From: a virus
Taxonomy: Duplodnaviria > Heunggongvirae > Uroviricota > Caudoviricetes
Reading direction: 5' to 3' (one strand)
IMG/VR virus record: IMGVR_UViG_3300023174_009216
DNA: 64,000 nucleotides
Numbering within the stretch: the stretch's first letter is position 1; the number at the start of each line of letters is the position of its first letter. Shown here piece by piece: positions 6,384 to 63,591 of this stretch. Position numbers and translations under genes: made by a program. The notes beneath the pieces were generated by a model. It did no database searches. It worked only from the letters and a program-made list of their open reading frames with translations, and was not told the DNA's origin.

Positions 6384-7559
6384 TTAACACTGGAATTTAA
6401 GTGACCAACGCGTTTGTCCAACTGGTCCAGTTACATTTATAATCAGATCATTAACTTTTTCTTTTTTATCTAAAGAGATCCTCCAATCAACCCCTTTCTC
6501 CTTGTCAAAATTCTTAACTTGATCCTTATCGAGAATATAAGGAACTATATCCTTGTTTTTATTGAACATTTTTTTATCCTGAGGATTTAATTTTTTATCA
6601 GGAAATGCATATTTGAAATCATTAGGATCTGATAAAGTACCGGACTTAGCCTCGTCCAAAATCCTTTCGGCTTCTTTTGCATCTAGCTCTTTGTATTTAA
6701 TATCTTTAAAGTACCAAGGTTTTTCTTTTTCTTTATAAACATTTCCTATAAGCGTTCCTAATGCCAATCGATAATACTCATTAGGAACACCAAGAAATCC
6801 CGTAGATTTTTTTTCTCCGTTATAATCGTATATAAACATATCAGGGACATCCACTGGATTAACTTGTATAACTATTTTACCTTCCCCGTCAGGATATACA
6901 AATTTATATTCTTCACTTAAAAAATCTGTTTCAACACCTGCAACTCCCCCTTTCTCGTCACGAAAATCTTCCTGTGTGCACGTCATTCCTTCAGGAATAA
7001 GATTTTTTATACCTTTAGATTTTGTCTCGCCCTCCGCCTTCAAAACAAATCTTACAAATTGCTCTTTCTTATATTTTTCATCATCTGGTTTATCCACACC
7101 TTTTGTGTAAGGTGTTTCTCCTATAATATAATTGACATCGATTTTTGGATCGTTGGTAAAAAGTTTTTGAGCCTTATATTCATCCAAGATTTTTCTTAGG
7201 ATTGTTCTAACAGTCTCTCCCCTTTTAGAGGATAATACACCTGGTTTTAATTCAGTTCTCTCTTCGGCCTCATTATCGAAGTTTGTAACCTTTGATTCCC
7301 CTGCCTGTACAGCAATAGAGACTGTATTATTTATATACTTCTTTAAATAATCAGTTATTGGTGCTATCTGGTCCCTTAGTGTTTTTTCTAATTCTGGATT
7401 TTTTTCAGCACTCCACATACCCTTGTCAAACTTAAACTCAAAAGGAATTGTTTGCGCCTCAGCCTTAGTTGTGGTTTCTGTTGCTCCTGTTGCACCTGCT
7501 GCTCCTTCTCCTGTTGCACCAGCTGCTTCAAATAATTTAAATGTCTTAAGATATCTCAT
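6384..7559 (-). CDS. putative capsid-targeted (CTS-like N-terminus) protein
   Basis: N-terminus MRYLKTFKLFE|AAGATGEGAAGATGATETTT shares the MKxIKxFExF + (L/I/F)xE signature with six other ORFs in the window. Gly/Ala/Thr linker follows. Confidence 0.55.
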   Translation of the reverse strand: MRYLKTFKLFEAAGATGEGAAGATGATETTTKAEAQTIPFEFKFDKGMWSAEKNPELEKTLRDQIAPITDYLKKYINNTVSIAVQAGESKVTNFDNEAEERTELKPGVLSSKRGETVRTILRKILDEYKAQKLFTNDPKIDVNYIIGETPYTKGVDKPDDEKYKKEQFVRFVLKAEGETKSKGIKNLIPEGMTCTQEDFRDEKGGVAGVETDFLSEEYKFVYPDGEGKIVIQVNPVDVPDMFIYDYNGEKKSTGFLGVPNEYYRLALGTLIGNVYKEKEKPWYFKDIKYKELDAKEAERILDEAKSGTLSDPNDFKYAFPDKKLNPQDKKMFNKNKDIVPYILDKDQVKNFDKEKGVDWRISLDKKEKVNDLIINVTGPVGQTRWSLKFQC

Positions 7560-7586
7560 TTTTTATGTGATTTATGTATATATCAA

Positions 7587-8045
7587 TTACTTTACCAGCA
7601 TGTCTGCTGCATATGTCATCACAGGGGAGTTTCCTTTATGCCTCACTTTATATCCCATCCCTGTTACAATTCCCACAGCAGTTGCTAGGGCTTGATTAGA
7701 TTTATATTTTGGATCTGGATTAATATCTATATCAATCCATGTTGCAACCAAACTAAGTTCGTTTTTAAGGACCTCTGCAACCTCAACAGATTGCCAAACC
7801 TCTGTTAGCAATCTATTTACACTATCTCTCTCCCTTTTAGTGGTGAATCTAGAATAAAGAACATGAGCTCCTTTCCCTGGTCTATACAGACCAACAACTA
7901 TTGCATAAATTGTTTCTTTATCCTTATTTTGTGAATCGCATCCTATTAGAATTTCTGTTTCTGGATGTTCTTGTAAATAGTCCCTGATGTAAGGAACTAG
8001 TTCGATGTCTTTCTTCTCTGACAGAGTTTTAAATACTTTTTTCAT
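7587..8045 (-). CDS. hypothetical protein
   Basis: 152 aa ORF. No confident motif. Confidence 0.45.
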   Translation of the reverse strand: MKKVFKTLSEKKDIELVPYIRDYLQEHPETEILIGCDSQNKDKETIYAIVVGLYRPGKGAHVLYSRFTTKRERDSVNRLLTEVWQSVEVAEVLKNELSLVATWIDIDINPDPKYKSNQALATAVGIVTGMGYKVRHKGNSPVMTYAADMLVK

Positions 8046-8176
8046 AGTCCTTTCTTTTATATATTGTTTAAATTTTATTAAATTAGTTAGGTTTAAATTT
8101 TGTTCTCATTTTCCTAACGTTGATTTACTACACTGTGGAAAAAACCTGGAATATATAATCGGAATCTTAAACCCGT

Positions 8177-8872
8177 ATGAAAACTATAACCATTGTAATA
8201 CCCTGTAAAAATGAAGGATATCTAGTTATAGACACATTAAAATTTCTTATCAATCAATCCATATCTTTTAAAATTATAATTGCAGACTCATCCGATGAAG
8301 AAAGCAGTATACTTCTTCTTAGAAAGTATCAAAAGATTTATTCCGAAAGAATCCAAATAATACCTGGAGGATTACCTGCAATAGCAAGAAATAACGGGGC
8401 AAAGCTAGCCGAAAGCGATTATCTTCTTTTTTTAGATGCAGACATACATATTTATGATAAACATCTGGTTGAGGAATGCTTAAATATAATATCCAAAAAA
8501 GATTATGATCTTGTCACATGTAAAATGAAAACATTAACAGGAGAACATAATTGGGTTTATAGAATATTTGATTTCTTCCAATGGCTAAGTTCTTTAAGCA
8601 AGCCTTTTGCTTTAGGTGGCTTTATGCTATTTAAAACAGAGACATTTAGAAAATTAAACGGATTCAATGAGAAAGACAAGATTGCTGAGGATTATCATCT
8701 TAGTTCGAAGATTAATCCCAGAAAATTTAAGATCCTTGATTTATATGTACATACTCCGAATAGAAGATTTTCTAAGAAGGGCGTGTATTATATGATTAAA
8801 CTAGCATGGAAAAGCTGGATCAATCGTAATAATGATGAATTTTTCCAAAAAGATTATAACTACTGGTCATGA
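8177..8872 (+). CDS. family 2 glycosyltransferase
   Basis: IVIPCKNEG N-terminal GT-A motif and FLDADI DxD motif. Confidence 0.65.
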   Translation: MKTITIVIPCKNEGYLVIDTLKFLINQSISFKIIIADSSDEESSILLLRKYQKIYSERIQIIPGGLPAIARNNGAKLAESDYLLFLDADIHIYDKHLVEECLNIISKKDYDLVTCKMKTLTGEHNWVYRIFDFFQWLSSLSKPFALGGFMLFKTETFRKLNGFNEKDKIAEDYHLSSKINPRKFKILDLYVHTPNRRFSKKGVYYMIKLAWKSWINRNNDEFFQKDYNYWS

Positions 8873-10930: not shown

Positions 10931-10970
10931 ATTGTAATTCTTTTGAATTTTATATATCCAAAAATATAGG

Positions 10971-11042
10971 TAGTCCCACCTAGACTCGAACTAGGATATC
11001 AGGTTTAGAAAACCTGCGTTCTATCCCTTGAACTATGGGACC
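10971..11042 (-). tRNA. tRNA-Arg(TCT)
   Basis: Hand-folded cloverleaf. Acceptor GGTCCCA/TGGGACT, D stem GTTC/GAAC, anticodon stem CAGGT/ACCTG with loop TTTCTAA, T arm CCTAG-TTCGAGT-CTAGG. Confidence 0.75.
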
Positions 11043-11138
11043 ATTTCGACATGGAGTAGTCACGGCCACCTCTAATCCTTCCATGTCTGTTTGTAACCGA
11101 AGCAAAATGTGGCTCGACTCTAGTTACAATCTTTTTAT

Positions 11139-11795
11139 TTATCTTCTTTTTAAAAATTTGTTTCTTAAAACTGGAATTAAAAAAGCCATTAAGGTAGCTA
11201 ACGAGAATACTAGATCCACACCCTCTGTGTTTAATCCTTTTGTCCAATAGCTTGCTACCAGCCTTATACCTAATACTCCTATCACCCAATAAGCTATTTT
11301 TTCTAAAAGTGGAACTTCCTCTAGGACTTTTACGAATGCAGTCGTGGCAAATCTCATTGCAAATATACCAATGAATACACCGCCACAGATCAACCAAAGA
11401 TTATCAGTGAAAGCCACAGAAGCAAATACATTATCAATACTAAATACCAGATCCATAATCTCTATCATCACCACAGTTGACCAGAATGTGTTTAGGAAAG
11501 GTATTTTTATAGGTTTAACGTGTCCGTTCTTCTGCTCTTTAAAAAGTGAGCTATAAGCTAAATAAACAAGGTATAAACCTCCTAGAACTTTAAGCCATAG
11601 TATATTGATCAGAACAGAAGCAAACACTAGTGCCAAGCCTCTAAAGACGTATGCACCAATGATTCCATAAGTTAGAGATTTCTTTTGCTGGCTCTTAGGT
11701 AACTGCTTTACCATTGTTGCTAAGACAGCTGCATTGTCTATACTTAGGACTATTTCTAGTAATAAGATATTTAGAAAGATTATTATCTGTGTCAT
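11139..11795 (-). CDS. TerC-family integral membrane protein
   Basis: Multiple TM segments with repeated SIDNAAVLA / SIDNVFA motifs typical of TerC. Confidence 0.7.
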   Translation of the reverse strand: MTQIIIFLNILLLEIVLSIDNAAVLATMVKQLPKSQQKKSLTYGIIGAYVFRGLALVFASVLINILWLKVLGGLYLVYLAYSSLFKEQKNGHVKPIKIPFLNTFWSTVVMIEIMDLVFSIDNVFASVAFTDNLWLICGGVFIGIFAMRFATTAFVKVLEEVPLLEKIAYWVIGVLGIRLVASYWTKGLNTEGVDLVFSLATLMAFLIPVLRNKFLKRR

Positions 11796-12079
11796 AAGGA
11801 TTTATTGATTATAGAATTTTTTCCATTAAAAAATTCGATCATGGAAATTTTTCCACTAAAACAAGATTTTTGGAGAATTTTTTCCATTATACTATTTTTC
11901 TTCTATTGCTTCCCAGGGAAACTCTGTAAGCAAAAGAATTTTATGCATTATCTCTTTATCTATAGCCATTCTCAATTCCTCCACCAAAAAATTAGTTATT
12001 TTACGTTCTGCCTTCTTTTTTTTCAGATATATTCTTTCTCTTCTTTTCATATTGTTTTTTATCTAACCTAAGAATTATG

Positions 12080-12152
12080 TGGACCCAACAGGATTCGAAC
12101 CTGTGACCTCAAAATTATGAGTTTTTTGCTCTACCAGCTGAGCTATGGGTCC
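12080..12152 (-). tRNA. tRNA-Met or Ile2 (CAT)
   Basis: Acceptor GGACCCA/TGGGTCC, D arm GCTC-AGCTGGTA-GAGC, anticodon loop CTCATAA, T arm ACAGG-TTCGAAT-CCTGT. Confidence 0.8.
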
Positions 12153-12163
12153 AGTTATATTTG

Positions 12164-12242
12164 TAGCCAGGACAGGATTCGAACCTGTAATACCGGTTTG
12201 ACCACTCGACGTGGTTGCGTCTATCCATTCCGCCACCTGGCT
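12164..12242 (-). tRNA. tRNA-like gene with Leu-type D arm and atypical anticodon arm (possible TCG anticodon)
   Basis: Acceptor AGCCAGG/CCTGGCT, D arm GCGG-AATGGATAGA-CGC, T arm ACAGG-TTCGAAT-CCTGT. Anticodon region ACCAC-GTCGA-GTGGT gives a 5-nt loop or a 4-bp stem with loop CGTCGAG (G33). 79 nt. Confidence 0.45.
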
Positions 12243-12362
12243 ATTTTTCTTTACTTCTTTTTACCAGTATTAACGGCAATCACAAATAATGATAATGTAC
12301 AGAATACAGTACATACAGGATAAAGTATATGCGTTAAAAAATTTTCCATATTATTTTATTTT

Positions 12363-12458
12363 TCATATTTCTTTTTTATCTTTTCTATGTATTTTTATTC
12401 TAACTCCGAAGAATGTAAAAAACACAATAACAAAAATAAATCCTATAATTAATTTCAT
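12363..12458 (-). CDS. small hydrophobic peptide (31 aa)
   Basis: ATG preceded by the conserved upstream motif AAAACAATAGAAAGTT. Encodes MKLIIGFIFVIVFFTFFGVRIKIHRKDKKEI. Below the ORF-track length cutoff. Confidence 0.3.
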   Translation of the reverse strand: MKLIIGFIFVIVFFTFFGVRIKIHRKDKKEI

Positions 12459-12464
12459 AACTTT

Positions 12465-12674
12465 CTATTGTTTTACGTAGTCCATTGTTTCTCTCATTTT
12501 TGCAATCAATGCTTCCATGCTTTCAGTATTCAAATATAATCTACCATTGTGATAGTCGTCAGCACTTTCTTTAAATTCTATAACGATACCATCGAATTCA
12601 GGTGTAGGCTGTATTCTAATGTCCTGATCGTTTTCTGTTGTGATTTCTGTTTTTATCCAGACTTTACTTTTCAT
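12465..12674 (-). CDS. hypothetical protein
   Basis: 69 aa acidic ORF inside the tRNA region. Confidence 0.4.
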   Translation of the reverse strand: MKSKVWIKTEITTENDQDIRIQPTPEFDGIVIEFKESADDYHNGRLYLNTESMEALIAKMRETMDYVKQ

Positions 12675-12758
12675 ACTATTTAAGTTTTAAGATAGTTTAT
12701 TTTTTCTCGTATAATATTACTTATAGTAACAAAATACGAGAATTTTTAAACTAAAAAG

Positions 12759-12832
12759 CGGATCGGACGGGACTCGAACCCGTGACCTCTGCCGTGACAG
12801 GGCAGCATTCTAACCAACTGAACTACCGATCC
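12759..12832 (-). tRNA. tRNA-Asp(GTC)
   Basis: Acceptor GGATCGG/CCGATCC, D arm GTTC-AGTTGGTTA-GAAT, anticodon stem CTGCC/GGCAG with loop CTGTCAC, T arm ACGGG-TTCGAGT-CCCGT. Confidence 0.85.
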
Positions 12833-12838
12833 TAGCGG

Positions 12839-12911
12839 TACCATGTACGGGGGTCGAACCCGTAATCTTCTCCGTGAAAGGGAGACGACTTAACCATTTG
12901 TCCAACACGGC
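12839..12911 (-). tRNA. tRNA-Glu(TTC)
   Basis: Acceptor GCCGTGT/ACATGGT (two G-U pairs), anticodon stem TCTCC/GGAGA with loop CTTTCAC, T arm ACGGG-TTCGACC-CCCGT. CC encoded. Confidence 0.75.
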
Positions 12912-12997
12912 ATTTTAATTCCTTATATCAAAGAACTCGTTATTTTTATTAACGAAGCAAATATAAAGTTTACGAGGGAAAAGAAAAAATGCTTTTT

Positions 12998-13669
12998 TTA
13001 AATCACCTGTTCTCTGTTATCTATATGAAAAATAACACAGGTATAATATTCTATAAAATGTTCATTCCACAAATCCCATTTTATATTCACACCATTAAGG
13101 GAGAAAACTTCAAAATTTGGAAATTGAGGAAGTATATTATCTCTGAAGTTTCTAAATCTTTCTTTATCTACTTCTGATAAATGCCATTCTCCGACAATCT
13201 TTTTAACTTTTGATTTTATGAATTCCATATTCTCTTCACAAAATATATCATATTCTCCGCCTTCACAATCTGTCTTTAAAAAATCTATTCTTTCTATACC
13301 ATATAATTTTAAAAAAGTAGAGAATTTAATGGTTTCTATTAGTTCTCCTCCTGGTCCCTCATAGTAAACACCAGGCATAAATTTTTGACCATCAGAATTT
13401 GAGATTGCCTTGCTTATGTGTGTAACTGGATGGCCCATTGTATTTTTAACCAGGAGGGGCAAAATAGTCCTTGATGGTTCAAAACAGAAAAAATGTTTAG
13501 CACCCTTATCTAAATTATTATAAGTAAAAGGTCCCCAACTAGCTCCGATATCAACAACTAGATCTCCTGGCTCAACTTCAAAAAACCTAGAATATTGGTT
13601 TATGTCATCAATATATTGATTCACATATTGTTCTTGATCACCTCCCCATTGAAAATTAGTAAAATCCAT
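12998..13669 (-). CDS. SAM-dependent methyltransferase, FkbM family
   Basis: LVVDIGASWGPFT glycine-rich SAM-binding motif followed by FCFEPS, matching the FkbM pattern. 223 aa. Confidence 0.6.
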   Translation of the reverse strand: MDFTNFQWGGDQEQYVNQYIDDINQYSRFFEVEPGDLVVDIGASWGPFTYNNLDKGAKHFFCFEPSRTILPLLVKNTMGHPVTHISKAISNSDGQKFMPGVYYEGPGGELIETIKFSTFLKLYGIERIDFLKTDCEGGEYDIFCEENMEFIKSKVKKIVGEWHLSEVDKERFRNFRDNILPQFPNFEVFSLNGVNIKWDLWNEHFIEYYTCVIFHIDNREQVI

Positions 13670-13753
13670 AGTTTTTATTTTTATATTCTCTTTATACTAA
13701 CAGTGGTTAGGCAAAGTTTCTTCTTGGAAGGAAAAAATGCTTTTAATTTTTTG

Positions 13754-13837
13754 TCGGACAGGTGAGAGTCGAACTCACTCAGCTATAAAGCAACGGTGTT
13801 ACAGACCGTCCTGGCTCTCCAACTCCAGCGCTATCCG
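13754..13837 (-). tRNA. tRNA-Tyr(GTA), class II with long variable arm (bacterial type)
   Basis: Acceptor CGGATAG/CTGTCCG, D arm CTGG-AGTTGGAGAG-CCAG, anticodon stem ACGGT/ACCGT with loop CTGTAAC, 14-nt variable arm with GCT-TTAT-AGC hairpin, T arm GTGAG-TTCGACT-CTCAC. Confidence 0.8.
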
Positions 13838-13843
13838 AAATTG

Positions 13844-13915
13844 AGGACTGGGAGAATTACGATATCTCGACCCCGAAGTTAACAGCTTCGTGCTCTGCCT
13901 CTGAGCTACCAGTCC
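13844..13915 (-). tRNA. tRNA-Asn(GTT) with non-canonical T loop
   Basis: Acceptor GGACTGG/CCAGTCC, D arm GCTC-AGAGGCA-GAGC, anticodon stem CGAAG/CTTCG with loop CTGTTAA. T arm GAGAT-ATCGTAA-TTCTC has A54 and one mismatch. Confidence 0.65.
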
Positions 13916-13967
13916 ATTTTGCTATTATGTTGCAACCAACGTTTTCTTGATGAGGAACGACCTGGTG

Positions 13968-14041
13968 TGCTTATGGGAAGACTCGAACTTCCAACCTTCC
14001 ACGTATCAGGCGGATGCTCTAACCAATTGAGCTACATAAAC
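13968..14041 (-). tRNA. tRNA-Ile(GAT)
   Basis: Acceptor GTTTATG/CATAAGC, D arm GCTC-AATTGGTTA-GAGC, anticodon loop CTGATAC, T arm GGAAG-TTCGAGT-CTTCC. Confidence 0.85.
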
Positions 14042-14161
14042 ATTTGATACGATTGCTGTTATTGGTTCGTATCAGACCTCCCCTTGCCCGTAATATAGTC
14101 TACTCGCTACTGTTATTCGCTTTCACTATACCCTAAAGGTTTGCCGGATGCACTAGTAAGG

Positions 14162-14249
14162 CGGAAAAGGCAGGATTCGAACCTGCGCGCCAGCTTTCAC
14201 CGACGAACGGTTTAGCAAACCGCGGCAGTACCACTATGCTTACTCTTCC
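14162..14249 (-). tRNA. tRNA-Ser(GCT), class II
   Basis: Acceptor GGAAGAG/CTTTTCC, anticodon stem GCGGT/ACCGT with loop TTGCTAA, long variable arm of about 20 nt, T arm GCAGG-TTCGAAT-CCTGC. CC encoded. Confidence 0.75.
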
Positions 14250-14254
14250 TAATG

Positions 14255-14328
14255 TGTTCTGAGCGGGATTCGAACCCGCACTGTATAAATTTTAAGTCTA
14301 TCACCTCTCCCTGTTGGGTTACCAGAAC
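14255..14328 (-). tRNA. tRNA-Leu(TAA), class-I-like (short variable loop)
   Basis: Acceptor GTTCTGG/TCAGAAC, anticodon stem ATAGA/TTTAT with loop CTTAAAA, 5-nt variable loop, T arm GCGGG-TTCGAAT-CCCGC. 74 nt. Confidence 0.7.
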
Positions 14329-17475: not shown

Positions 17476-17919
17476 TTACCAATTAGGTTCCATCCCGTAT
17501 CCTTTTATAGGTAGATATTTAGATGCTATTTTATATTTTGTTTGTGGATTCATTATCAACGCAATCTCTGATAATAACCTAGCTTCTCTTTTTCCTAATT
17601 CTCGACCTTTCGTATTCCATTCGTCATTCTTCAAATCGTAGTAAATATATAAGGTTAAATCCATAGATGGTTTAATATATGTAACAATGACCCTATCTAT
17701 ACTGGATTTATCATAATTCAGTTGTATCTCTATATCTGAGAGTGTTCCATCTAGGAATGGCTTATCCATATAATTATAGAAGTGTGTTTTTAATAATTCT
17801 CCTGCTCTACCTGGCTGACCTTGCGACACAGCAACATCAGCGGCACTTTTAATTGTCTCAGATGATATCTCGTTTAATTCTCCAGGAACGAAACTTTCGA
17901 ATACTTTAATGTGCTTCAT
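17476..17919 (-). CDS. putative capsid-targeted (CTS-like N-terminus) protein
   Basis: MKHIKVFESFVPGE N-terminus. A TATAAATA octamer lies 11 nt upstream of the ATG on the coding strand (T4 late-promoter-like; may be chance). Confidence 0.55.
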   Translation of the reverse strand: MKHIKVFESFVPGELNEISSETIKSAADVAVSQGQPGRAGELLKTHFYNYMDKPFLDGTLSDIEIQLNYDKSSIDRVIVTYIKPSMDLTLYIYYDLKNDEWNTKGRELGKREARLLSEIALIMNPQTKYKIASKYLPIKGYGMEPNW

Positions 17920-17966: not shown

Positions 17967-18890
17967 TTAGGTAAATTTAAAGGTATCTTTACCTATTTTT
18001 ATTCCTTTCGTAATTTGATCGTATAAAGCTTTATTTATACCTTTACTGATATCTCCAAAATATATAGCGTTATTACCTGTTCCTTCAGTTGCCCGCCCTG
18101 CTGTTAAAATAGCTCTTTGAGTCATGTTTCCGTAGTTTCCTGTAGCAGCAGGTATATTCAAATATTTTAATTCGATTAGTTTATTCTGAAGATCTGTTAT
18201 GTATTTGCCATCAGATCCTTTATCTGTTGTTCCTATTGGTATATAGGCTCTTTTCGGATCTTTAGTTTCATCGTTAACAAATGGACTACCCTTATATGGC
18301 TTCATCTTATACTTATTCTTAATAAAACTGTCAATGATTTTTCCATTAGAACAACTCCATGTTGAATCTATCCACTTTGCATTCTTAGAATCAGGACCCA
18401 TAGAATTACTTCCTGCCATTAAAGATTTTGATTTACCGTTAGGATAGTAACGAACAGTACCTTGTGAAGTTCTGGTTGTAAACATATCAATAATACCATC
18501 ATTATCGGTATCTTGTGGAATATATTTTTGAAAATCCTGTTTTGTTATACATTCAAATTTACCTAAAAATCCTGGATCATACTTGTATTTATCTTTAGTG
18601 ATATAGTTAGGTGTTGGTGCTTGATCTACCTTTCTATATTCACCACCAATATCTTTATAATATCTTAGAAAATTAATATCCATGAATGGCGACTTAAACC
18701 CGCTTCTGTCCATTTTATCCTCTACTTTTGGAAATCCTGCAGACCATAATTTTTCATCATCATTTCTATTTTCAGTACCATCGTAAAGGGATTTCTTCAC
18801 CATGGTCGGTAATTTATTAAAATCTATAACAGGTGCTGTTGATGCCTCTGATACTGAGCTAAAATTTTCGAAAACTTGTAAATACTTCAT
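17967..18890 (-). CDS. putative capsid-targeted protein with C-terminal peptidoglycan-binding-like domain
   Basis: MKYLQVFENFSSVSE N-terminus. C-terminal DGKYITDLQNKLIELKYLNIPAATGNYGNMTQRAILTAG matches the PG_binding_1 pattern (LQ..L..LGY...G.FG..T..A). Confidence 0.55.
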   Translation of the reverse strand: MKYLQVFENFSSVSEASTAPVIDFNKLPTMVKKSLYDGTENRNDDEKLWSAGFPKVEDKMDRSGFKSPFMDINFLRYYKDIGGEYRKVDQAPTPNYITKDKYKYDPGFLGKFECITKQDFQKYIPQDTDNDGIIDMFTTRTSQGTVRYYPNGKSKSLMAGSNSMGPDSKNAKWIDSTWSCSNGKIIDSFIKNKYKMKPYKGSPFVNDETKDPKRAYIPIGTTDKGSDGKYITDLQNKLIELKYLNIPAATGNYGNMTQRAILTAGRATEGTGNNAIYFGDISKGINKALYDQITKGIKIGKDTFKFT

Positions 18891-18906: not shown

Positions 18907-19332
18907 TTATGCTATATCTTCTCTTTTATCCCCTTGAATAAGGCCTTTATCTTTTGTGTATGTGGTATTAGTAGCTAGTCTATCAATAAGTTGATCGTAT
19001 AATTTTTTATCTACTTTTTGACCCTTCTTATATATGTCGCTATTATTCATTTCTAATCCTGCATCAGTCATGGGACCAAAATAACCAGTAACTAAATTTT
19101 TACCTTTGCTACTCACAAGGCGCATTAATTCCTGTAATGCCTTAACCTTTTCGTTGTTTCTCATTCCCTTTTGGATAAACTCTGTAGATCCCCATGTAAT
19201 ACTTTTTGCGTTTTTATACAAAGAGCTTACTGAGCTTGAGAGATTTGATGTATTTATTGGATTTGATGGGGTTACTGGGCGTCCATCTTCATTCAGATCG
19301 CTCCATTTTTCGAAAACTTGTATATGCTTCAT
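18907..19332 (-). CDS. putative capsid-targeted protein with peptidoglycan-binding-like segment
   Basis: MKHIQVFEKWSDLNE N-terminus. VKALQELMRLVSSKGKNLVTGYFGPMTDAGLE resembles PG_binding_1. Confidence 0.5.
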   Translation of the reverse strand: MKHIQVFEKWSDLNEDGRPVTPSNPINTSNLSSSVSSLYKNAKSITWGSTEFIQKGMRNNEKVKALQELMRLVSSKGKNLVTGYFGPMTDAGLEMNNSDIYKKGQKVDKKLYDQLIDRLATNTTYTKDKGLIQGDKREDIA

Positions 19333-25327: not shown

Positions 25328-27067
25328 CTATTTTATTTTTTGAGAGTCATCTATCCAAGGTTCTATCTTTTTCATAATTTCATCTTTTGCATCAATCATT
25401 GCCATCACACGTTCATAAATACCAGGACTTTCCTCATAGAGATTTCTCCAGGATGGGTCTTTATCCCATCTATTTTTAAAGTCCAGCATTCTTATAAAAT
25501 TTCTAATAGTTGCTTCTGCAACTTTTCCCATAAATTCTGAATCAGGACTAGGAAATATAGCATCAAATACTTCGATAGAAACCCTATTCATTAATCCACC
25601 AGCAATTCTTGGATTCGAATTCTCATTTCCCCTGAAAGCATCTTTAATGGCATTCATTTCTCTCTCCCCAGCATTTAATAAAATACCCTGTATAACAATT
25701 TTAAAGAATATTGATTTAATTTCATTAAAAGAATCATCACTAGTATATCGATAAGAGCTCTTAATAAAATTATTAACAGCTTGGCCTATATTACGGTTAT
25801 CCCTATAGAAATCATCAGTTACTTTCTTTAATGCGAATTCCTCCCTAAAAACCCTTTTGATCTCATCAATCATTTCCTGCGGGTATCCTAATCTCTTTAG
25901 CTGATCATAGTACTTCTCACCATTCTGTTTTATATTATCATTATTAATATCACTAGACGAATAAACACCTCCGTCTTCAGAGATTGTTACACCTATAAGA
26001 TGTAATTTATCGCTCTCAGGAACCCCAAAATTAAATATATTAAGTTGAACTCTTCCACCTGCGTATGACCAGAATCTGGTGTCATTAATACACCAGGTAC
26101 CTGCAATAGAACATAATCCTTTCTGAGCATCCTCTGATCTTATAGAAAGAGCTACATATTGACCATCCTCATATAAGATAGCAACCCCAGGTTTCAGGGA
26201 TTCTGCATCTTTCAATATTTTATTGATATTAGATCCCATGGATTCTATAAATTTTTCCCCAAATTTTATAAGGGATTTAATAGAATCATAAGAAGATACT
26301 CTACTAAGAAATCTTTTTTTGATTGTTTCCGATTCTTCAGCAGCCTCTATTTTGGTTGCTATGTTGATGATCTTTTGTTTATCTTCTGGTCCTGATTTTC
26401 TATATTCATCCTTAAGGTTAACAACTCTACCCGCCACATATAAAGGATTACGAGGATCTGAAGCTGCACTGGTTGGGAGTGCATCTACAAGCCATCTAGC
26501 ATCTCTTTCTTTACCAATCTCCCTTAATGCATCTTCGAGCATCTCAAATCCAGATCTAATCTCAGATTGTGAATTGACCTTTTCAATTTGAGATTTTATT
26601 CCCTCTATTCTATCTACATCACCTGATTTTTCAGATCTCATTAAATCAGATTCTAGTTTTTTTAAGGTCTCTGATTTTGGAAGAATCTTAGCATATTGCT
26701 CAATATTCATTGGAAGACTTCCAAGGAAAGGTGCATATGTTCCTAATTTATTTTTAAGAACCACTAGGTCAGGAAGAGAAACATCCTGATCAAAGTGAAA
26801 TCTAACAAAAGCATTTAACAATCCCTGCTGATCAGCAACTATAGAATTTTTAATTTCTAAATATTCTTTATTGGAAAGTATTGCTATTTCTTCTTCTTTT
26901 GTTACCTCCGATGGTTTCTTTTTAGAAAACTTATTTATCATGAAGGATTTAGCTGCCTGTACGTTCTCATTTAAGATTTTTAAATAATCTTGGTTTTCCC
27001 ATGAAGATCCTATTCTTTTTATATTTTCATTCAGAGAAAAACTTTTAAAATTCTTAATTCTTTTCAT
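25328..27067 (-). CDS. putative capsid-targeted (CTS-like N-terminus) large protein, paralog A
   Basis: Start set at ATG 27067 giving MKRIKNFKSFSLNE (the track begins at an upstream GTG). Long blocks shared with 27092..28888, e.g. RSGFEMLED...ARWLVDALP..AASDPRNPLYVAGRVVNLKD. Confidence 0.6.
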   Translation of the reverse strand: MKRIKNFKSFSLNENIKRIGSSWENQDYLKILNENVQAAKSFMINKFSKKKPSEVTKEEEIAILSNKEYLEIKNSIVADQQGLLNAFVRFHFDQDVSLPDLVVLKNKLGTYAPFLGSLPMNIEQYAKILPKSETLKKLESDLMRSEKSGDVDRIEGIKSQIEKVNSQSEIRSGFEMLEDALREIGKERDARWLVDALPTSAASDPRNPLYVAGRVVNLKDEYRKSGPEDKQKIINIATKIEAAEESETIKKRFLSRVSSYDSIKSLIKFGEKFIESMGSNINKILKDAESLKPGVAILYEDGQYVALSIRSEDAQKGLCSIAGTWCINDTRFWSYAGGRVQLNIFNFGVPESDKLHLIGVTISEDGGVYSSSDINNDNIKQNGEKYYDQLKRLGYPQEMIDEIKRVFREEFALKKVTDDFYRDNRNIGQAVNNFIKSSYRYTSDDSFNEIKSIFFKIVIQGILLNAGEREMNAIKDAFRGNENSNPRIAGGLMNRVSIEVFDAIFPSPDSEFMGKVAEATIRNFIRMLDFKNRWDKDPSWRNLYEESPGIYERVMAMIDAKDEIMKKIEPWIDDSQKIK

Positions 27068-27091: not shown

Positions 27092-28888
27092 CTACTTAGA
27101 TTTAAGGGTTTTTTTGGAAAATTTATTAGACATAAATGATGAGGAGTTTAAACTTTCTTTTATTTTGTCGCCTTCAATACTTTGATCATTACCTAGCCAT
27201 GGTTTTATCTTATCTATGATCTCATCTTTTGCTTCTATCATTGCAGATAGTTGTCCATAAAAATCTGGACTGGAATTGAACTTAGCTTTAAACCCAGGTT
27301 GAGTGTCCATTCTATCCTTAAGATTCGTCATTGCGCTAACATTTTTAAGAGTTGCTTCAGCAACCTGTTTCATAAATTCAGGCTCGGGATTAGGATATAT
27401 TGTATCAAATAATTCTATAGCAGTGGTGTTCATTATACCGCCTGCAATATTTCTTGATGGGTCTCCAGTGAAACATTTTCTAACAAGTTCCATTTCATTT
27501 TTACTCTTAAGCATGTTTAATTCTATATTTTGTTTAAGAATTTGATAGAATATAGATTTAACAGACTCAAATGCAACTTTGTTTTCGTAAATATAGGAAA
27601 CCCTAAGAAATTTATTAATAGATTCTGAGAGGCTTTTGCCATCTTTATAAAAATCATCGGTTAGTGACTTTACCTTGTGCTCTTGATCAAAGTATTTTTG
27701 AATCTCACTTATCATAATATTAGGATAGCCCATTCTAGCAAGCTGCTCGTAATACTTTTCTGAACCATTACTTATTCTGGAGTCATTAACATCATGTGAT
27801 GTTGTAACTTTTCCATCTTTAGCTATTGTTATACCTATTAAGAAAAATCTATCCGTTGGTGCCAGCTCAAAATTAAAAACAGCAAGTTGTATATTTCCTT
27901 TTGCATAACTCCAAAATGCTCCTCTATTAATACACCAGTTAGCAGCACCGCATAATTCTTTCTGAGCATCCTCTGATCTTAATGAAAGAGCTACATATTG
28001 TTCATCGCTATACATAATAGCAACCCCTGGATATAGTGCTTCAGCTTGTTTTAAAAGCTTATCAGTATTACCACCAAGTGCTTTAGAGAAAGATGATGCA
28101 GTGATAGATAGATTCTCTATAGAATCAAATGCTGATATCTTTTTTAAAAATCTCTCCTTATTTTCCTCTGCATTTTCAGATTTAGCTATTATGCTTCCTG
28201 CATTAATAATCTGATTTTTTAACTCAGGATCTGCATTTCTATATTGATCTTTAAGATTAACGACCCTACCTGCCACATATAAAGGATTACGTGGATCAGA
28301 AGCTGCATTGCTAGGAAGAGCATCTATAAGCCATCTAGCTTCTCTTTCCTTCTCGATGTATGCTAATTCATCATCTAACATTTCAAATCCTGATCTGATA
28401 TCTGTTTCTTCCTGTGCTCTAACAGATTTTATTTGATTCATTACTCCTTCTATTCTGGCTTCGTCACCAGATTCTTGCGCTTTTCTTAAAGTATTCTCTA
28501 GCTTTTTTATCTTTTCCGCTTTTGGCTCATATACAATTTTAGCATACTCGTCTATATTCTTAGGTAGACCTCCTAGAAAATTTTTATAGGTTTCTAAATT
28601 ATTCCTAAGACCTATTAAATCTTCTAAAGATTTACCTTGATCAAAATGGAATCTAACAAAAGCATTAACCCATCCTGGATATTTAGCACAGATTACATTT
28701 TTAATCTCCTGGTATTCTTTATTGGAAAGGATCTCTATCTCTTCCTCTTTTGATACAGGTGTTTTCTTAGCGAATTTTTTGAGCATGAATGCTTTAGCTG
28801 CTTGCACGTTTTCGTTTAAATTTTTTAGATAATCTTCTTTTTTTCTCTCATTAAGGAAAAAACCTTTGAAATCTTTAATTCTTTTCAT
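27092..28888 (-). CDS. putative capsid-targeted (CTS-like N-terminus) large protein, paralog B
   Basis: MKRIKDFKGFFLNE N-terminus. Tandem paralog of 25328..27067. Confidence 0.6.
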   Translation of the reverse strand: MKRIKDFKGFFLNERKKEDYLKNLNENVQAAKAFMLKKFAKKTPVSKEEEIEILSNKEYQEIKNVICAKYPGWVNAFVRFHFDQGKSLEDLIGLRNNLETYKNFLGGLPKNIDEYAKIVYEPKAEKIKKLENTLRKAQESGDEARIEGVMNQIKSVRAQEETDIRSGFEMLDDELAYIEKEREARWLIDALPSNAASDPRNPLYVAGRVVNLKDQYRNADPELKNQIINAGSIIAKSENAEENKERFLKKISAFDSIENLSITASSFSKALGGNTDKLLKQAEALYPGVAIMYSDEQYVALSLRSEDAQKELCGAANWCINRGAFWSYAKGNIQLAVFNFELAPTDRFFLIGITIAKDGKVTTSHDVNDSRISNGSEKYYEQLARMGYPNIMISEIQKYFDQEHKVKSLTDDFYKDGKSLSESINKFLRVSYIYENKVAFESVKSIFYQILKQNIELNMLKSKNEMELVRKCFTGDPSRNIAGGIMNTTAIELFDTIYPNPEPEFMKQVAEATLKNVSAMTNLKDRMDTQPGFKAKFNSSPDFYGQLSAMIEAKDEIIDKIKPWLGNDQSIEGDKIKESLNSSSFMSNKFSKKTLKSK

Positions 28889-58147: not shown

Positions 58148-58681
58148 TTACTTAAGAGTTAATAGGTACTTAAATTTGGAAACTGCTCCAAGTAATTCAT
58201 CCATTATGTTTAAAAGATCGCTAGATCCTTTAAATACCCTTTCAGTACTTTCCCTTAATTGCTCAATAACATTTATTACCCCAGATAGCCACTCCTCAGT
58301 GTTAACATCTTCATAATCAAGAATATTAAGTTGTCCTCCAAATCTTAATCTTTCATCTTTCATATATCCCTGATAAGCTTCAACCAATGTATCTAGAATA
58401 TCGTCTACAGAATCATAGGTGGCACCAGCACCTGAATGTTCAGAGAAAGATTTTGTTTGCCAATGAAATGCTTTTAATTGTACATGAAATTCAACTAGGC
58501 TTCTAAAGAGAGCATTCATATCAAGGATCCCCATTGTTGGCTCATCAGAATCAGTATTTTTCTGGTCGCGAGAATCAACAGGTTCTACTTCTAGATCATT
58601 AGTGGTATCGATTTCATCGCTGTTTACCTCCATATCATCCTGTTCGTTCACTCTTTTTCTAAAATCCATAAAATTCCTCAT
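58148..58681 (-). CDS. hypothetical acidic protein
   Basis: 177 aa ORF. Confidence 0.45.
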   Translation of the reverse strand: MRNFMDFRKRVNEQDDMEVNSDEIDTTNDLEVEPVDSRDQKNTDSDEPTMGILDMNALFRSLVEFHVQLKAFHWQTKSFSEHSGAGATYDSVDDILDTLVEAYQGYMKDERLRFGGQLNILDYEDVNTEEWLSGVINVIEQLRESTERVFKGSSDLLNIMDELLGAVSKFKYLLTLK

Positions 58682-58715
58682 AGTATTTTTTTATTTATAT
58701 ATCTATGAGAAAGAA

Positions 58716-59873
58716 TTAAAAAAGTGCTTTAACTAAAAGTAAATTAGGGGAGAGCGGTTGATATCCCATAACTTCTATAAATCTATTGATGGGATCTAAG
58801 ATGGTACGGTTAAATTGTGCATCAAAATCTATAGGAGGTGCAAGTTCGTATGGATAAGCTCCGTTTAAATAGCCGAAGACATTGTTTTCTTGCTCGCTAT
58901 TGACCGCTACAAAGTAATACTTGATTTTCTCTGATGAACGAATTAGCGAGTATTTTGCCTTGTATTTTGAGTTATTAAGGATATAGTTATGATACCCAGA
59001 TGCTCTAACATGCATAGGGCATCCTTTTGCTACCTCAAATCCTGTTGTATCGTTTAGAATAAATTTTTCTATATTATTAACACCAACACCTATAGAGATA
59101 GCATCAGGCTTCTGAATCTTAAATTCAGATTTAATTTCCCTTAGCATTTTTACAAACGTCCTTAGATCAAAATTTTTACCTGTTTGGAAGATATGCTTAA
59201 GTAAAAGAATAAGTTTTTCTCTTGCAAATGGAGGGGTTCCTCCTTGAACTATTTCAATACCTGTGGGCTTAATTCTTGAAAGATCAGCATAATGTTTTCC
59301 TGGTGCTTCGTATGTTAGATTAACAATGTACTTTTTCTTACCTAAGAAAACCGCATTTCTTGATATGGTTTCCAGTTCAAAGTCTTGGTGATTATCAGTG
59401 CTCCATTTCTTAGCATAAACATTAAAACAATTGTTTAAATATTCAGCTAATCTGTTCTTGTTTATATTTAAAATAAGATCAAGAGGTTCACAATCAAATT
59501 CACATGAAGCTATAATATTTCCAAAGTTAACATAGTTAGAATCTGTGTCTGCATAAATTATCATTTCTGCTGTTACAGGTCTAACATTTCTAGCACCTAT
59601 TTTTTCATGAAGCTCTGTGTCTAAATGCCAATGCTCATGAAAATACCTATTGATTACTTTCTCTGCAAACTTAACAAGATCCTGTCCCTGAAGGGTTACG
59701 CTTTCTGCAACATCAGAATTGAAGCATGCAAAGTAGGCGTTTCCCGTTGCTCCGTAGATACTATTAAGTGTTAGCTTAATTCCTTGTTCTTCGTTTTTAT
59801 AATCCGCAGACATCTTTTTAAGCCTGCTGATTTCCTTCTTGATTTCTTCAACACTTAATTCTTCGTAATTCAC
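58716..59873 (-). CDS. DNA polymerase B family, C-terminal fragment (T4 gp43-like, motifs B and C only)
   Basis: EEQGIKLTLNSIYGATGNAYFACF...TLQGQ...YADTDSNYV aligns with T4 gp43 ERQGRKILINSLYGALGNIHFRYY...GDTDSVYV. Lacks motif A and the exonuclease domain. 385 aa. Confidence 0.75.
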   Translation of the reverse strand: MNYEELSVEEIKKEISRLKKMSADYKNEEQGIKLTLNSIYGATGNAYFACFNSDVAESVTLQGQDLVKFAEKVINRYFHEHWHLDTELHEKIGARNVRPVTAEMIIYADTDSNYVNFGNIIASCEFDCEPLDLILNINKNRLAEYLNNCFNVYAKKWSTDNHQDFELETISRNAVFLGKKKYIVNLTYEAPGKHYADLSRIKPTGIEIVQGGTPPFAREKLILLLKHIFQTGKNFDLRTFVKMLREIKSEFKIQKPDAISIGVGVNNIEKFILNDTTGFEVAKGCPMHVRASGYHNYILNNSKYKAKYSLIRSSEKIKYYFVAVNSEQENNVFGYLNGAYPYELAPPIDFDAQFNRTILDPINRFIEVMGYQPLSPNLLLVKALF

Positions 59874-59885: not shown

Positions 59886-60650
59886 TTAAACTTCAACTAA
59901 TCCTATTGCAATGATTGAATTGCTTTCTTCTGAGATAACTACTATTCTATTTTCTTGAACATGAAAAGATGAATTTTCCTGATCAATAAAATTAAATTGA
60001 TTCTTGTAGATTGTATAATTTGAATCCTCTTTGTATTCAGGCAAAGGACCATCTTTAACTATATTGTACTGAAAAGAATTACCTTTAACTGAAAGTCCAT
60101 TTGCATGAACCTGGAAATTAAGAAGTTCCTCTGAATTACTTTCTATGGTTGTTAAAGAGCTTATCTTAGAAAATGAGTCTTTAGAAACATTAAATGATAT
60201 AATTGCTCCTTCGCTGGTGTGTATGGTTTTTTGTATTTTATCTTCTATATAAGATAGCAAAGAAATATCTGCACATTTAAATTTGATATTAATACTTGGG
60301 GAATACACTCTAAATCCTGTAGCAATCAAAGCAGAATCCATCGTCTGTGCAGTGAACTCAATATATGTTTCTTCCTCCGGTCCAAAATATTTAAAAACGT
60401 CTATAAGTTTTCCTATCTCTAGTATTCCTATTTTTACTCTGCTAGGGCTAGAATCACCATCAAAAAAATCATCTATTGTCGATCCAACAAATTTAATGAC
60501 AGATTTATCTGGTGTTCTCACTTTAGCAAAAAATTCTCTGCCTTCTAATTCTAATATAATAGATCTGTCTACCATTTTCAATTTCTTCAAAAAAGTAATT
60601 AGATTCCCCGAATTAGTAATTCTAAAATTTAATTTTAATTCTTTTTTCAT
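59886..60650 (-). CDS. sliding clamp-like protein (T4 gp45-like)
   Basis: 254 aa. N-terminal LKLNFRITNSGNLITF resembles T4 gp45 LLKNFATINSGIMLKS. Adjacent to the polymerase fragment. Moderate confidence. Confidence 0.45.
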   Translation of the reverse strand: MKKELKLNFRITNSGNLITFLKKLKMVDRSIILELEGREFFAKVRTPDKSVIKFVGSTIDDFFDGDSSPSRVKIGILEIGKLIDVFKYFGPEEETYIEFTAQTMDSALIATGFRVYSPSINIKFKCADISLLSYIEDKIQKTIHTSEGAIISFNVSKDSFSKISSLTTIESNSEELLNFQVHANGLSVKGNSFQYNIVKDGPLPEYKEDSNYTIYKNQFNFIDQENSSFHVQENRIVVISEESNSIIAIGLVEV

Positions 60651-62123: not shown

Positions 62124-62170
62124 CTAATTTATTGTTTACTATCTTTTTATCATAAAAATAAATAAAATTC

Positions 62171-62198
62171 CATAAAAAAGAGGCTTTAAAAGCCTCTT
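62171..62198 (-). terminator. rho-independent terminator-like hairpin (AAGAGGC...GCCTCTT) with T-run on the minus strand
   Basis: 7 to 10-bp GC-containing stem immediately 3' of the 62230..63591 stop, followed on the minus strand by TTTTTTATG. Confidence 0.6.
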
Positions 62199-62229
62199 TA
62201 GAAAATTATCGATTTAATATTATTTTTTA

Positions 62230-63591
62230 TTATGATTCATCGTCATCTTTAGACTTACTTTTAGAACCTGATGTTGCAGTAAGCTTTTTAAGTTCTGATC
62301 CTGATAATGCTCTATCCAGGTCTTCTATCACATCCACCTTATATTTGCTTTTATACAAATTCTTAAATTTCTTTGCTGTGCTGCTATTAGTAACAACCGA
62401 ATTATAAAGATCTATAAGCTTATCCTCGTCAGAAAAAGTTTTATCTAATTCATTTCTAATCTCATCTGCCACGTCATCCATTTCATCTTCCGCTCTTTCT
62501 TCTGATGCTTCTTTTTTAGCCTTTTTAGCAGAGCTTAATTTTTCATCCTCCTCAGATTTTTTTTCCTCCTCCTCAGATTTTTTAGCGGCAATACCGTCTG
62601 CATCCTTTTTTTCTATGTCTCCTAATTCATCATTCTCTATCAAAGCGTAGAGATAATTTCCACCGTTCTGTGATGCTTCTTTAAGTGCAGTCATAAATTT
62701 ATTAAAATCTTCGCCATTTGCAAATACCTGGCATCCTGCAGAATATGGTCCTACACAAACACCTGGTCCTTTAGATCCTCTATGAATATTAATTCCATAT
62801 CCGTCACCCTTATCTGGATTTCCTGGTTCGTATGTATCTATATCGCTACTACCTGGTTTGTATCTTTCTATTTGCATTGGACCCGCTTGAAGTAATGCTT
62901 CATGCTCTGTTGGGCTTCCTTTTTTATGTATGCCTATTTTATATTGATATACGCCAGGCTGCATTATAGCAACCCCTGCTGCATTTAAGGATCTGCTAGG
63001 ACTTCCATAATAAGAAACCGAAGGAGTTGTTGTTACTGCATAAGTTTCTGGTGTTTCATTAGGCTTAGAAGGATCTATGATCAATAATTTATCTATAAAT
63101 TTATCACCCTCTCTTTTTTTAATCTCTAGCTTTTCTCTAATTCCCAATATAAATACTTTATTGCTTCCCGCATAAGGCTTAGACGCTCCAGTTGCTCCTG
63201 TTGCACCTGTCGCTCCAGTTGCTCCTGTTCCACCAGCTCCGTAATTAGAACCGGTTAACTCTTTAGATATTTCAATATACGCATCTTTTTTAGATAATGC
63301 ACCATCAGGATATACAAAAAGATCTATGATCCATTTATTGGTTTTGTTGACAGGAGAAATTTGATAAGCGCTGCTACCACATGCGGTGTAAGGTAATCCA
63401 CCTTTAGTCTCTTTTGTGTCTGCAATTTTGGAATAATCCTTGTCTTCAAATCCTAACTTAGATAATGCTTGCTGTACAAGAGCTGTTCCTATTCCGCCTG
63501 CGCTAAGATCCATTCCTAATCCTGAATCTTTTTTGTCCTTCTCCTCTTGCTCGAAAATGAACTGTTTAAAAGAAAATATTCTTCTATGCAT
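62230..63591 (-). CDS. putative capsid-targeted (CTS-like N-terminus) protein with Gly/Ala/Thr linker
   Basis: MHRRIFSFKQFIFE N-terminus. GAGGTGATGATGATGATGAS linker (compare GATGEGAAGATGATETTT in 6384..7559). Early segment GIGTALVQQALSKLGFEDKDY is PG-binding-like. Highly charged C-terminus. Confidence 0.55.
   Translation of the reverse strand: MHRRIFSFKQFIFEQEEKDKKDSGLGMDLSAGGIGTALVQQALSKLGFEDKDYSKIADTKETKGGLPYTACGSSAYQISPVNKTNKWIIDLFVYPDGALSKKDAYIEISKELTGSNYGAGGTGATGATGATGATGASKPYAGSNKVFILGIREKLEIKKREGDKFIDKLLIIDPSKPNETPETYAVTTTPSVSYYGSPSRSLNAAGVAIMQPGVYQYKIGIHKKGSPTEHEALLQAGPMQIERYKPGSSDIDTYEPGNPDKGDGYGINIHRGSKGPGVCVGPYSAGCQVFANGEDFNKFMTALKEASQNGGNYLYALIENDELGDIEKKDADGIAAKKSEEEEKKSEEDEKLSSAKKAKKEASEERAEDEMDDVADEIRNELDKTFSDEDKLIDLYNSVVTNSSTAKKFKNLYKSKYKVDVIEDLDRALSGSELKKLTATSGSKSKSKDDDES

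Follow-up and report, generated by a model that had tools for sequence, protein, structure and literature searches.

The 64,000-nucleotide stretch of viral DNA considered here (IMG/VR record IMGVR_UViG_3300023174_009216, Caudoviricetes; hereafter the window) has a G+C content of about 34% and carries nearly all of its genes on one strand, and among these is a set of genes whose protein products begin with much the same short peptide, here called the tag. An earlier reading made from the letters of the window (the sequence-only reading) had picked out seven such open reading frames (ORFs), and all seven are indeed present on the minus strand, each beginning exactly with the peptide then quoted; with one clear further case added, the set within the window numbers eight clear members, or up to ten if doubtful ones are counted. 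The part of the genome covered by the analysis is the window together with a 10-kb flank on each side.

The tagged proteins are most simply introduced in their order along the window, all being encoded on the minus strand and a slash marking the putative point of cleavage. The added member, p188 (188 residues, 1334..1900), begins MGNVKNFKKWSGVNE/VRK, and its orthologues carry MSIKNYPEFKKIQE/VRR. Next comes p391 (391 residues, 6384..7559), in which the tag MRYLKTFKLFE/A leads into a Gly/Ala/Thr-rich linker, followed by three closely spaced genes encoding p147 (147 residues, 17476..17919, tag MKHIKVFESFVPGE/LNE/I), p307 (307 residues, 17967..18890, tag MKYLQVFENFSSVSE/A) and p141 (141 residues, 18907..19332, tag MKHIQVFEKWSDLNE/D). 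None of p391, p147, p141 and p188 has a match in Pfam, PHROG or NCBIfam, while p307, for which no relatives were found in IMG/VR, shows near its C-terminus a weak match to the Pfam family PG_binding_1 (E=7.7e-4, below the curated cut-off). The two proteins of about 590 residues to which the sequence-only reading had drawn attention are p579 (579 residues, 25328..27067, tag MKRIKNFKSFSLNE/N) and p598 (598 residues, 27092..28888, tag MKRIKDFKGFFLNE/R), each of which has a second conserved junction further along the chain, ...ILNE/NVQAAK in p579 and NLNE/NVQAAK in p598. (In the ORF list p579 is given a start two codons further upstream, the GTG at 27073; it is the ATG at 27067 that gives the tag.) An AlphaFold 2 model of p598 (mean predicted local distance difference test score 77.5) is mostly helical with residues 1-16 disordered, and a Foldseek comparison of this model with the PDB gave no fold match. 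Last in order is p453 (453 residues, 62230..63591), in which the tag MHRRIFSFKQFIFE/QE is followed by a linker, a domain with the YkuD fold resembling peptidoglycan L,D-transpeptidases/carboxypeptidases (approximately residues 148-323), an acidic helix and a C-terminal annexin repeat (approximately residues 390-450; profile E=2e-9 against annexin VI), such repeats being, to our knowledge, unusual in phages. Linkers of Gly-Ala-Thr repeats (GATGATGATGA) occur both in p391 (residues 12-30) and in the unrelated p453 (approximately 120-136), and in orthologues of p453 the tag is immediately followed by comparable linkers, in which Gly, Thr, Ser, Ala and Pro abound.

The two less certain members, likewise on the minus strand, are a 318-residue ORF (L003:8982-9938) that starts at position 80 and runs off the window, its N-terminus MKVLGFKNWYE/N fitting the tag less well in that the first aromatic residue is one position off, and p177 (58148..58681), a Dps/ferritin-like protein with a DUF5856 domain (Pfam E=5.5e-12) that begins MRNFMDFRKRVNE/Q. 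The latter is the more doubtful because its orthologues begin MTFDEFK... and do not clearly keep the tag, although a homologue in the related locus L025 begins MITSFNNFLNE/N. Beyond the window, roughly 4 kb to its left, a protein of 342 residues is a clear further member and begins MSDKIKKFDSFFE.

The pattern proposed in the sequence-only reading, M-[KR]-x-[IL]-[KQ]-x-F-[EK]-x-[FW], is fitted strictly by six of its seven N-termini, the seventh, that of p453, being shifted by one residue; the p453 N-terminus nevertheless belongs to the same class as the others, in that an aromatic-x-x-aromatic-hydrophobic-x-E core is found no later than residue 20 in 103 of 120 clusters of p453 homologues. In a six-frame translation of the window the pattern matches six times, always at the first ATG of a coding-strand ORF, whereas the expectation from the amino-acid composition of the window is 6e-5 matches per 100 genes. 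All eight tags begin at Met1, at the first ATG of the ORF, and conservation is over by residue 13-17. The claim that each of the seven is followed by a hydrophobic-x-Glu holds throughout (LFE, PGE/LNE, VSE, LNE in three cases, and IFE) and extends at the level of sequence to all eight, the tag ends reading SLNE/N, FLNE/R, DLNE/D, GVNE/V, SVSE/A, PGE/LNE/I, LFE/A and IFE/Q. What lies behind the tag is quite another matter: an all-versus-all BLAST comparison with the first 20 residues removed found only p579 and p598 to be paralogous (53% identity), and no similarity beyond those residues could be detected in any other pair of tagged proteins in the window.

Within the tag, synonymous codons vary from gene to gene (AAA/AAG, TTT/TTC, ATT/ATA/CTT/TTA, GAA/GAG), which argues that selection acts on the peptide and not on a DNA repeat. 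This bears directly on one alternative, namely that what is conserved is the nucleic acid, either as an enhancer of translation initiation acting where there is no Shine-Dalgarno sequence or as a recombination cassette for the shuffling of genes, the peptide itself having no role. There are certainly features that such an explanation would accommodate, as the upstream regions are AT-rich with no obvious Shine-Dalgarno sequence, the tag genes often lie in tandem arrays, and the internal-protein genes of T-even phages are highly diverse with only the targeting sequence in common (PMC3012670). However, it is the residues that stay constant while their codons change, conservation falls on particular aromatic and Glu residues set at a helical spacing, the tag stops exactly at the Glu, and the same putative promoter serves other late genes that have no tag, so that we consider this alternative very improbable.

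The putative promoter in question is an octamer, GATATATA, of which the window holds 11 copies, all on the coding strand. Ten of these are intergenic and just upstream of a gene, while the eleventh falls in the 3' end of a gene, about 45 nt before the next start. A copy lies no more than 60 nt upstream of five of the eight tag genes, whereas of the 83 other genes 6 have one there (Fisher p=4.6e-4), the five tag genes being those for p188 (1919-1926), p391 (7577-7584), p147 (17935-17942), p141 (19351-19358) and p598 (28935-28942), all on the minus strand; at p147 the box takes the longer form GATATATAAATA (17931-17942), as it does before p177 (58692-58703). Among the genes that follow the remaining copies are some that look structural. 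In ten relatives the orthologues of p453 all have GATATATA[GC] directly before the start codon, and in the related locus L144 the similar ATATATAA stands before the portal, protease and other structural genes and before one tagged gene. (The T4 late-promoter octamer, TATAAATA, was also considered, but it occurs in the window only at the frequency expected by chance and GATATATA is the informative box.) Its position suggests that the GATATATA box is a late promoter. Having the box does not entail having the tag, since in the window and its flanks the fibre-like proteins, a protein with a Laminin_G_3 domain and an endolysin-like PG_binding_1 protein have the former without the latter; and, on a point that the sequence-only reading had raised, no recognisable enzyme of replication or nucleotide metabolism in the window bears the tag.

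How strongly the tag is retained can be judged from the p453 and p598 families. Syntenic orthologues of p453 keep it in the form M-x-[KR]-x-[ILV]-[FL]-[ST]-F-x-x-[FY]-[IL]-x-E/Q, the approximately 150 residues that follow being unalignable and the catalytic domain only about 35% identical, while homologues of the catalytic domain from outside the clade of tagged phages (in a crAss-like phage, in Bacteroides phage DAC16 and in a P2-like Pseudoalteromonas phage) are about 205 residues long and lack both the tag and the linker. Members of the p598 family have N-terminal extensions of 16 to about 480 residues, most with a recognisable tag (e.g. MAKIKKFGQFNSIQE or MRRIKGFKTF), and the second junction, hydrophobic-N-E/NVQA[AG]K, is kept in all but the most divergent member, which has LNE/DIKSAK. 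Two homologues of 1015 residues (P0122 and P0123) have an extra domain of about 470 residues between the tag and the LNE/NVQAAK junction, an arrangement in which a single tag may bring in two cargo modules, to be parted afterwards by the protease.

The nature of some of the cargo raises the question of whether the tag might instead be a signal for export or for membrane targeting, by which the proteins reach the host envelope. Several of the attached domains would be at home there (the YkuD-fold domain, the annexin repeat, the weak PG_binding_1 matches and, among the relatives, a CHAP peptidase), but the tags are charged and amphipathic, and none of them shows a Sec, Tat or lipoprotein feature (a hydrophobic core of at least 7 residues, a twin-arginine motif or a lipobox cysteine). 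As homologous envelope-active domains in phages outside the clade do without the tag, as does the endolysin-like protein in the flank, an export function is scarcely credible.

Turning to the wider distribution of the tag, the core MKxIKxFExF was back-translated to a degenerate DNA pattern and used to scan IMG/VR, yielding at least 156 matches in at least 120 stretches, nearly all of them at the starts of ORFs. Residues beyond those scanned for proved to be conserved too: the 137 non-redundant ORFs among the matches listed give the consensus MK[HY]IK[LT]FExF[ILV][NS]E, with hydrophobic-x-Glu exactly at positions 11-13 in 70 of the 137, compared with about 3 at control positions (a 23-fold enrichment), and conservation is gone after position 13. 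Once the tag is trimmed, the complete tagged ORFs, of which there are at least 134, fall into at least 101 families. Tandem arrays of tag genes are common, the locus L105 having 14 in 9 kb. Pfam searches with ten of the cargos returned two families of GNAT acetyltransferases, a CHAP peptidase, an ATP-grasp enzyme and an enzyme resembling flavin adenine dinucleotide (FAD) amine oxidases, and a tagged 2H-phosphoesterase (L107:979-1518) scores 28.3 bits, just above the cut-off of 27, as Acb1, a protein directed against the cyclic-oligonucleotide-based anti-phage signalling system (CBASS).

Using T4 gp20, gp21 and gp23 (NC_000866) as queries, T4-type portals, prohead proteases and capsid proteins were found in the tagged loci, and in these head modules the tag has a fixed place. 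A tagged gene encoding about 115 residues lies between portal and protease, and in L052 there are also tagged genes between protease and capsid protein. When a capsid-protein profile was used to retrieve 80 further head modules from IMG/VR (the scan covering the loci closest to L033), a single small ORF was found between portal and Peptidase_S77 protease in 74 of the 74 modules that contain both, and it is always tagged, with 63 tags fitting the strict pattern and 11 being obvious variants such as MKIYNTFESFIKE. The small protein so encoded is conserved in its middle part and ends in a very acidic tail. In L144, where Pfam recognises T4-gp15, Phage_T4_gp2, Portal_T4, Peptidase_S77 and Gp23, the 395-residue protein right after the capsid gene begins MKRVKSYNQFIAE. 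An alignment of portals was too divergent to serve in scanning for loci.

The cleavage motif also leads back to the head. Gp21 of T4 cleaves after Glu in I/L-x-E motifs (PMC12991175), and the T4 gp23 cut FLTE/AEIGG aligns with GGFLNE/SIIG in the capsid protein of Chryseobacterium phage MA9V-2, with HNLNE/SVY in L052 and with KLYE/DA in L033. Most of the best 120 of more than 3296 capsid-protein clusters read MYANQLINE/AEVQKTW...HYHNLNE/SVYNTV. The N-terminal LINE/AE of these proteins was at one stage a candidate for the homologue of the gp23 cut, but it is ruled out by the alignment, which puts the homologous site downstream, at NLNE/S or FLNE/S. Proteins in which protease and scaffold are fused are likewise rich in such sites: hydrophobic-x-E occurs 6-9 times per 100 residues in five of six (3.5 in MA9V-2; background 2.8) and hydrophobic-N-E 0.8-1.6 times in five of six, some 3-6 times the background of 0.25 (0.3 in L062), and four metagenomic protease-scaffold proteins have an invariant RVNE/S[FY] just after the protease domain. 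We propose hydrophobic-N-E followed by S, A or N as the site that the protease of this clade would prefer.

These observations need to be set against a further alternative, in which the tag, as a propeptide to be cut off or as a docking peptide, serves some late process other than loading of the head, such as delivery to a chaperone or unfoldase of the ClpB-like AAA+ type, incorporation into tail or neck, or the holding of enzymes in an inactive state until they are cut. A gene for a 764-residue ClpB-like protein with two AAA+ domains (L003:3471-5765, plus strand), preceded by a ATATATAA box, does in fact lie some 5-7 kb to the left of the window, directly upstream of that for the tagged 342-residue protein, several of the cargo enzymes are plausible as inactive precursors, and the authors of a study of jumbo phages raised, as speculation, the translocation of proteins into heads by AAA+ proteins (PMC7824862); the ClpB-like protein might itself be an unfoldase or translocase for head-internal proteins. 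What makes this alternative fairly unlikely is that a tagged protein is universally conserved between portal and prohead protease, that the tag ends in the motif of the capsid-protein maturation site, and that fibre- and baseplate-like proteins with the same putative promoter have no tag.

The sequence-only reading had taken the shared N-termini for a capsid-targeting sequence of the T4 type, and this is supported, if indirectly, by the specificity of the motif, its modularity, its likeness to T4, its presence in every one of the 74 head modules, its ending in the motif of the capsid site, its association with the GATATATA box, and the intermediate forms, described below, in MA9V-2 and in Tenacibaculum phage pT24. 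To judge from the sequences, then, the shared N-terminus is probably a T4-type capsid-targeting propeptide carried by late-transcribed genes. If so, its first ten or so residues would fold as an amphipathic helix, hydrophobic at positions 4, 7 and 10/11, that binds the assembling scaffold core of the prohead; the protein behind it would be enclosed as the capsid shell closes; the Peptidase_S77 prohead protease (the T4 gp21 family) would then cut behind the Glu in the closing hydrophobic-x-E of the tag; and the mature cargo would stay in the DNA-filled head, probably to exit with the DNA at infection. That the scaffold is bound, that the tag is cut off, and that the cargo resides in the virion and is ejected are all steps that we infer.

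A number of points weigh on the other side. The tags of the window depart from the clade consensus, four of the eight having Lys for Glu at position 8, and the Glu at which they end varies in position from residue 11 to 17. No Peptidase_S77 protease or head module was found in the window or its 10-kb flanks, although the protease is present in every related head module examined. The FAD amine-oxidase-like and ATP-grasp cargos could equally be ordinary cytoplasmic enzymes; an hhalign comparison of the small tagged head protein with T4 gp67 found no homology; and in the cultured relative Tenacibaculum phage PTm1 no clear tag was found within the 45 kb examined. Finally, no virion proteome has been published for this phage or its tagged relatives, nor for the related phage MA9V-1, for which there is only sodium dodecyl sulphate-polyacrylamide gel electrophoresis.

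A more specific, and distinctly more tentative, idea concerns what the tag might bind. In the scaffold part of four of the six protease-scaffold proteins there is a unit of about 14 residues, ..I-x-Y-S-E-Y-[LVI]-A-E.., mostly in tandem, with 6-8 copies in each of L144:8092-9897, L052:6338-8080 and L062:5128-7122 and 2 copies in L033. The unit fits aromatic-x-x-aromatic-hydrophobic-x-E, for which the background is 0.05 per 100 residues, and the same pattern is matched by the core of the tag (F-E-x-F-[ILV]-N-E) and by the T4 capsid-targeting sequence (Y-Q-E-F-I-A-E), one of the repeats reading YSEYIAE. Since the three share one pattern, the tag may conceivably be a free-standing copy of a repeat by which the scaffold associates with itself, in which case tagged cargo would co-polymerise with the scaffold and be released by the same cuts that dismantle it. 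No such repeat was found in the scaffolds of MA9V-2 and PTm1, so mimicry of this kind is possibly limited to part of the clade.

As to its source, the window belongs to a metagenomic assembly of a phage that is of jumbo size and distantly T4-like, a conclusion that rests on the length of the contigs, the T4-type gene content and the size of the relatives. The window sequence is found also on two ENA contigs from one sample (ERZ2680843), NODE_321 (117.7 kb) and NODE_556 (88 kb), which by their coordinates abut within a collagen-like gene and together span about 206 kb; neither is among the best 120 of the more than 3296 capsid-protein clusters found in the profile search. Relatives in IMG/VR, about 70% identical in the polymerase fragment, reach 206 and 248 kb, while an exact 40-mer taken from the window was absent from IMG/VR and no close relatives at the DNA level were found among GenBank phages. 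The window has 22 transfer RNA (tRNA) genes (10969-16628) and encodes an RNA ligase, the nicotinamide phosphoribosyltransferase NAMPT, an interrupted thymidylate synthase and, as T4 hallmarks, homologues of Acb3 and Y16D, a subunit of topoisomerase II and the C-terminal piece of a family-B DNA polymerase of the gp43 type that is encoded in split form. The hosts of the tagged clade are probably Bacteroidota.

Several features of the remaining genes deserve brief mention, all those with coordinates being on the minus strand. Thymidylate synthase (40002-41831) is in two pieces, of 105 and 322 residues, with a 200-residue ORF (40912-41514) between them, recalling the intron and homing-endonuclease layout of T4 td. 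Of the polymerase only the C-terminal half is present (58716-59873), next to a preceding 254-residue ORF (59886-60650); the pair is syntenic in L040, and the polymerase of MA9V-2 is similarly split, with a TnpB gene between the halves. The collagen-like (Gly-X-Y) fibre protein of 836 residues (54783-57293) gives rise to long spurious ORFs (529 and 576 residues), both in a second frame of its own strand and on the complementary strand, and it is here that metagenome assemblies break, the assembly L126 having a different gene, of 335 residues, at this point. Two large fibre-like proteins encoded side by side (30482-32413, 643 residues; 32436-35285, 949 residues) both start MPKYLV, and in the larger there is a Fib_succ_major domain, characteristic of Fibrobacter and Bacteroidota. 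A cluster for salvage of nicotinamide adenine dinucleotide (NAD+; 21292-24051), comprising a phosphoribosyltransferase-like protein, NAMPT (501 residues) and a NADAR-domain protein, may counter host defences that deplete NAD+, and the homologues of T4 Acb3 (anti-CBASS) and T4 Y16D are adjacent (37286-38333). Lastly, a near-identical sequence, AACAATAGAAAGTT, directly precedes the ATG of small, probably early genes at 41831, 42195, 42462, 42690 and 43601, and may be a conserved cassette for translation initiation or regulation, separate from the GATATATA box.

The interest of the tag lies in the fact that injected phage proteins are hard to infer from sequence, T4 being the one well-studied case with a predictive address label. 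If the proposal is right, the proteins that a huge and almost wholly uncultured group of T4-like phages packages and injects could be read directly from genomes, and the tagged cell-wall enzymes, acetyltransferases and Acb1-like anti-CBASS enzyme suggest ready-made functions for entry and counter-defence. Should the tag be a mimic of the scaffold repeat, one 13-residue peptide would define the complete injected set across a clade of more than 3000 capsid-protein clusters, and counter-defence enzymes such as the Acb1-like phosphodiesterase and the GNAT acetyltransferases would be delivered before any phage gene is expressed. As MA9V-2 and pT24 are in culture, the idea of a capsid tag is testable now, and the tag (MKHIKLFEQFINE, or the 10-residue form of MA9V-2) is a candidate handle for loading foreign proteins into Bacteroidota phages, much as has been done by engineering in T4.

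It remains to compare the tag with known systems, of which T4 is the closest. In the T4 record (NC_000866) the internal proteins IPII and IPIII begin MKTYQEFIAE/A and IPI begins MKTFKEF...ITE/A; this capsid-targeting sequence of IPI, IPII, IPIII and Alt goes back to Mullaney and Black in 1996 (as cited in PMC5694885 and PMC3012670), and is a propeptide of 10-20 residues that ensures incorporation into the prohead (PMC5694885). Like the tag, it is short, stands at the N-terminus of proteins that are unrelated in other respects, and closes with hydrophobic-x-Glu, which is the specificity of gp21, and M-K-x-hydrophobic-[KQ]-x-F is common to the T4 internal proteins and the tags of the window, although this is a resemblance only, a 10-mer being too short to prove descent. 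The relatives of the window share the T4-type set of Portal_T4, Peptidase_S77 and Gp23, and the T4 core and scaffold genes 67, 68 and 22 stand where tagged genes stand in the clade, in the gaps between portal and protease and between protease and capsid protein. Gp67 and gp68 in particular occupy the position of the approximately 115-residue tagged protein, and gp67 is also small, with a very acidic C-terminal tail, but both start without a targeting sequence of the internal-protein type. A weaker parallel is that the T4 internal-protein genes flank a tRNA cluster, three of the tag genes in the window lying about 850 nt from the tRNA array.

Between the T4 and clade forms stand those of two cultured jumbo phages of Bacteroidota, which were found by blastn of the DNA of the consensus tag against GenBank phages, a search that otherwise returned mostly noise. 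MA9V-2 (OR513085) has six short tags, of up to 10 residues, that bridge the two forms: MKTFTYFINE/A (between portal and protease), MKNFFSFINE/A, MKTFFTFVNE/S, MKNFFQFINE/S, MKNFFINE/S and MKQFFVNE/S. In pT24 (LC168164) there are tandem genes whose products begin MKDISVYINE, MKSILEYVTE and MRIEQYLTE.

Giant phages of the SPN3US/phiKZ type also have head-internal proteins with N-terminal propeptides, thought to direct them into the prohead, and a T4-related protease that cuts after Glu (PMC5694885, PMC10052503). Their propeptides, however, are mostly longer than 100 residues, specific to each protein and cut at ALE or SLE, whereas the tags of the clade have 11-17 residues and are shared, long propeptides (about 480 residues) occurring only in the 1015-residue homologues of p598. 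The cargo-loading peptides of encapsulins are similarly short and portable and load unrelated proteins into a shell of the HK97 fold, but they are usually C-terminal, bind the shell protein directly, are not removed, and have no relation in sequence to the tag. The sequence-only reading knew of no description of this motif, and the tag strings indeed have no match in the full-text literature searched, in which few subscription journals are covered; work on capsid targeting since 2012 deals with T4 and its engineering, SPN3US and P1 and does not treat metagenomic or Bacteroidota phages, an earlier description in a subscription journal being possible, and a comparative study of 224 jumbo phages makes no mention of capsid-targeting tags (PMC7824862).

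All this said, the principle is one known from T4, and the differences lie in the consensus sequence, in the motif preferred for cleavage, in the scale, and in the fact that a core protein of the head also bears the tag. The clade tag is usually of 13-15 residues with the consensus MK[HY]IK[LT]FExF[ILV]NE, where that of T4 has 10; its site is hydrophobic-N-E, where that of T4 is I-A-E; it is found also on a protein of the core head module; its repertoire is far larger, with 8-10 genes in 64 kb of the window, the 14-gene array of L105 and the 101 or more cargo families; and its probable hosts are Bacteroidota, where those of T4 are enterobacteria.

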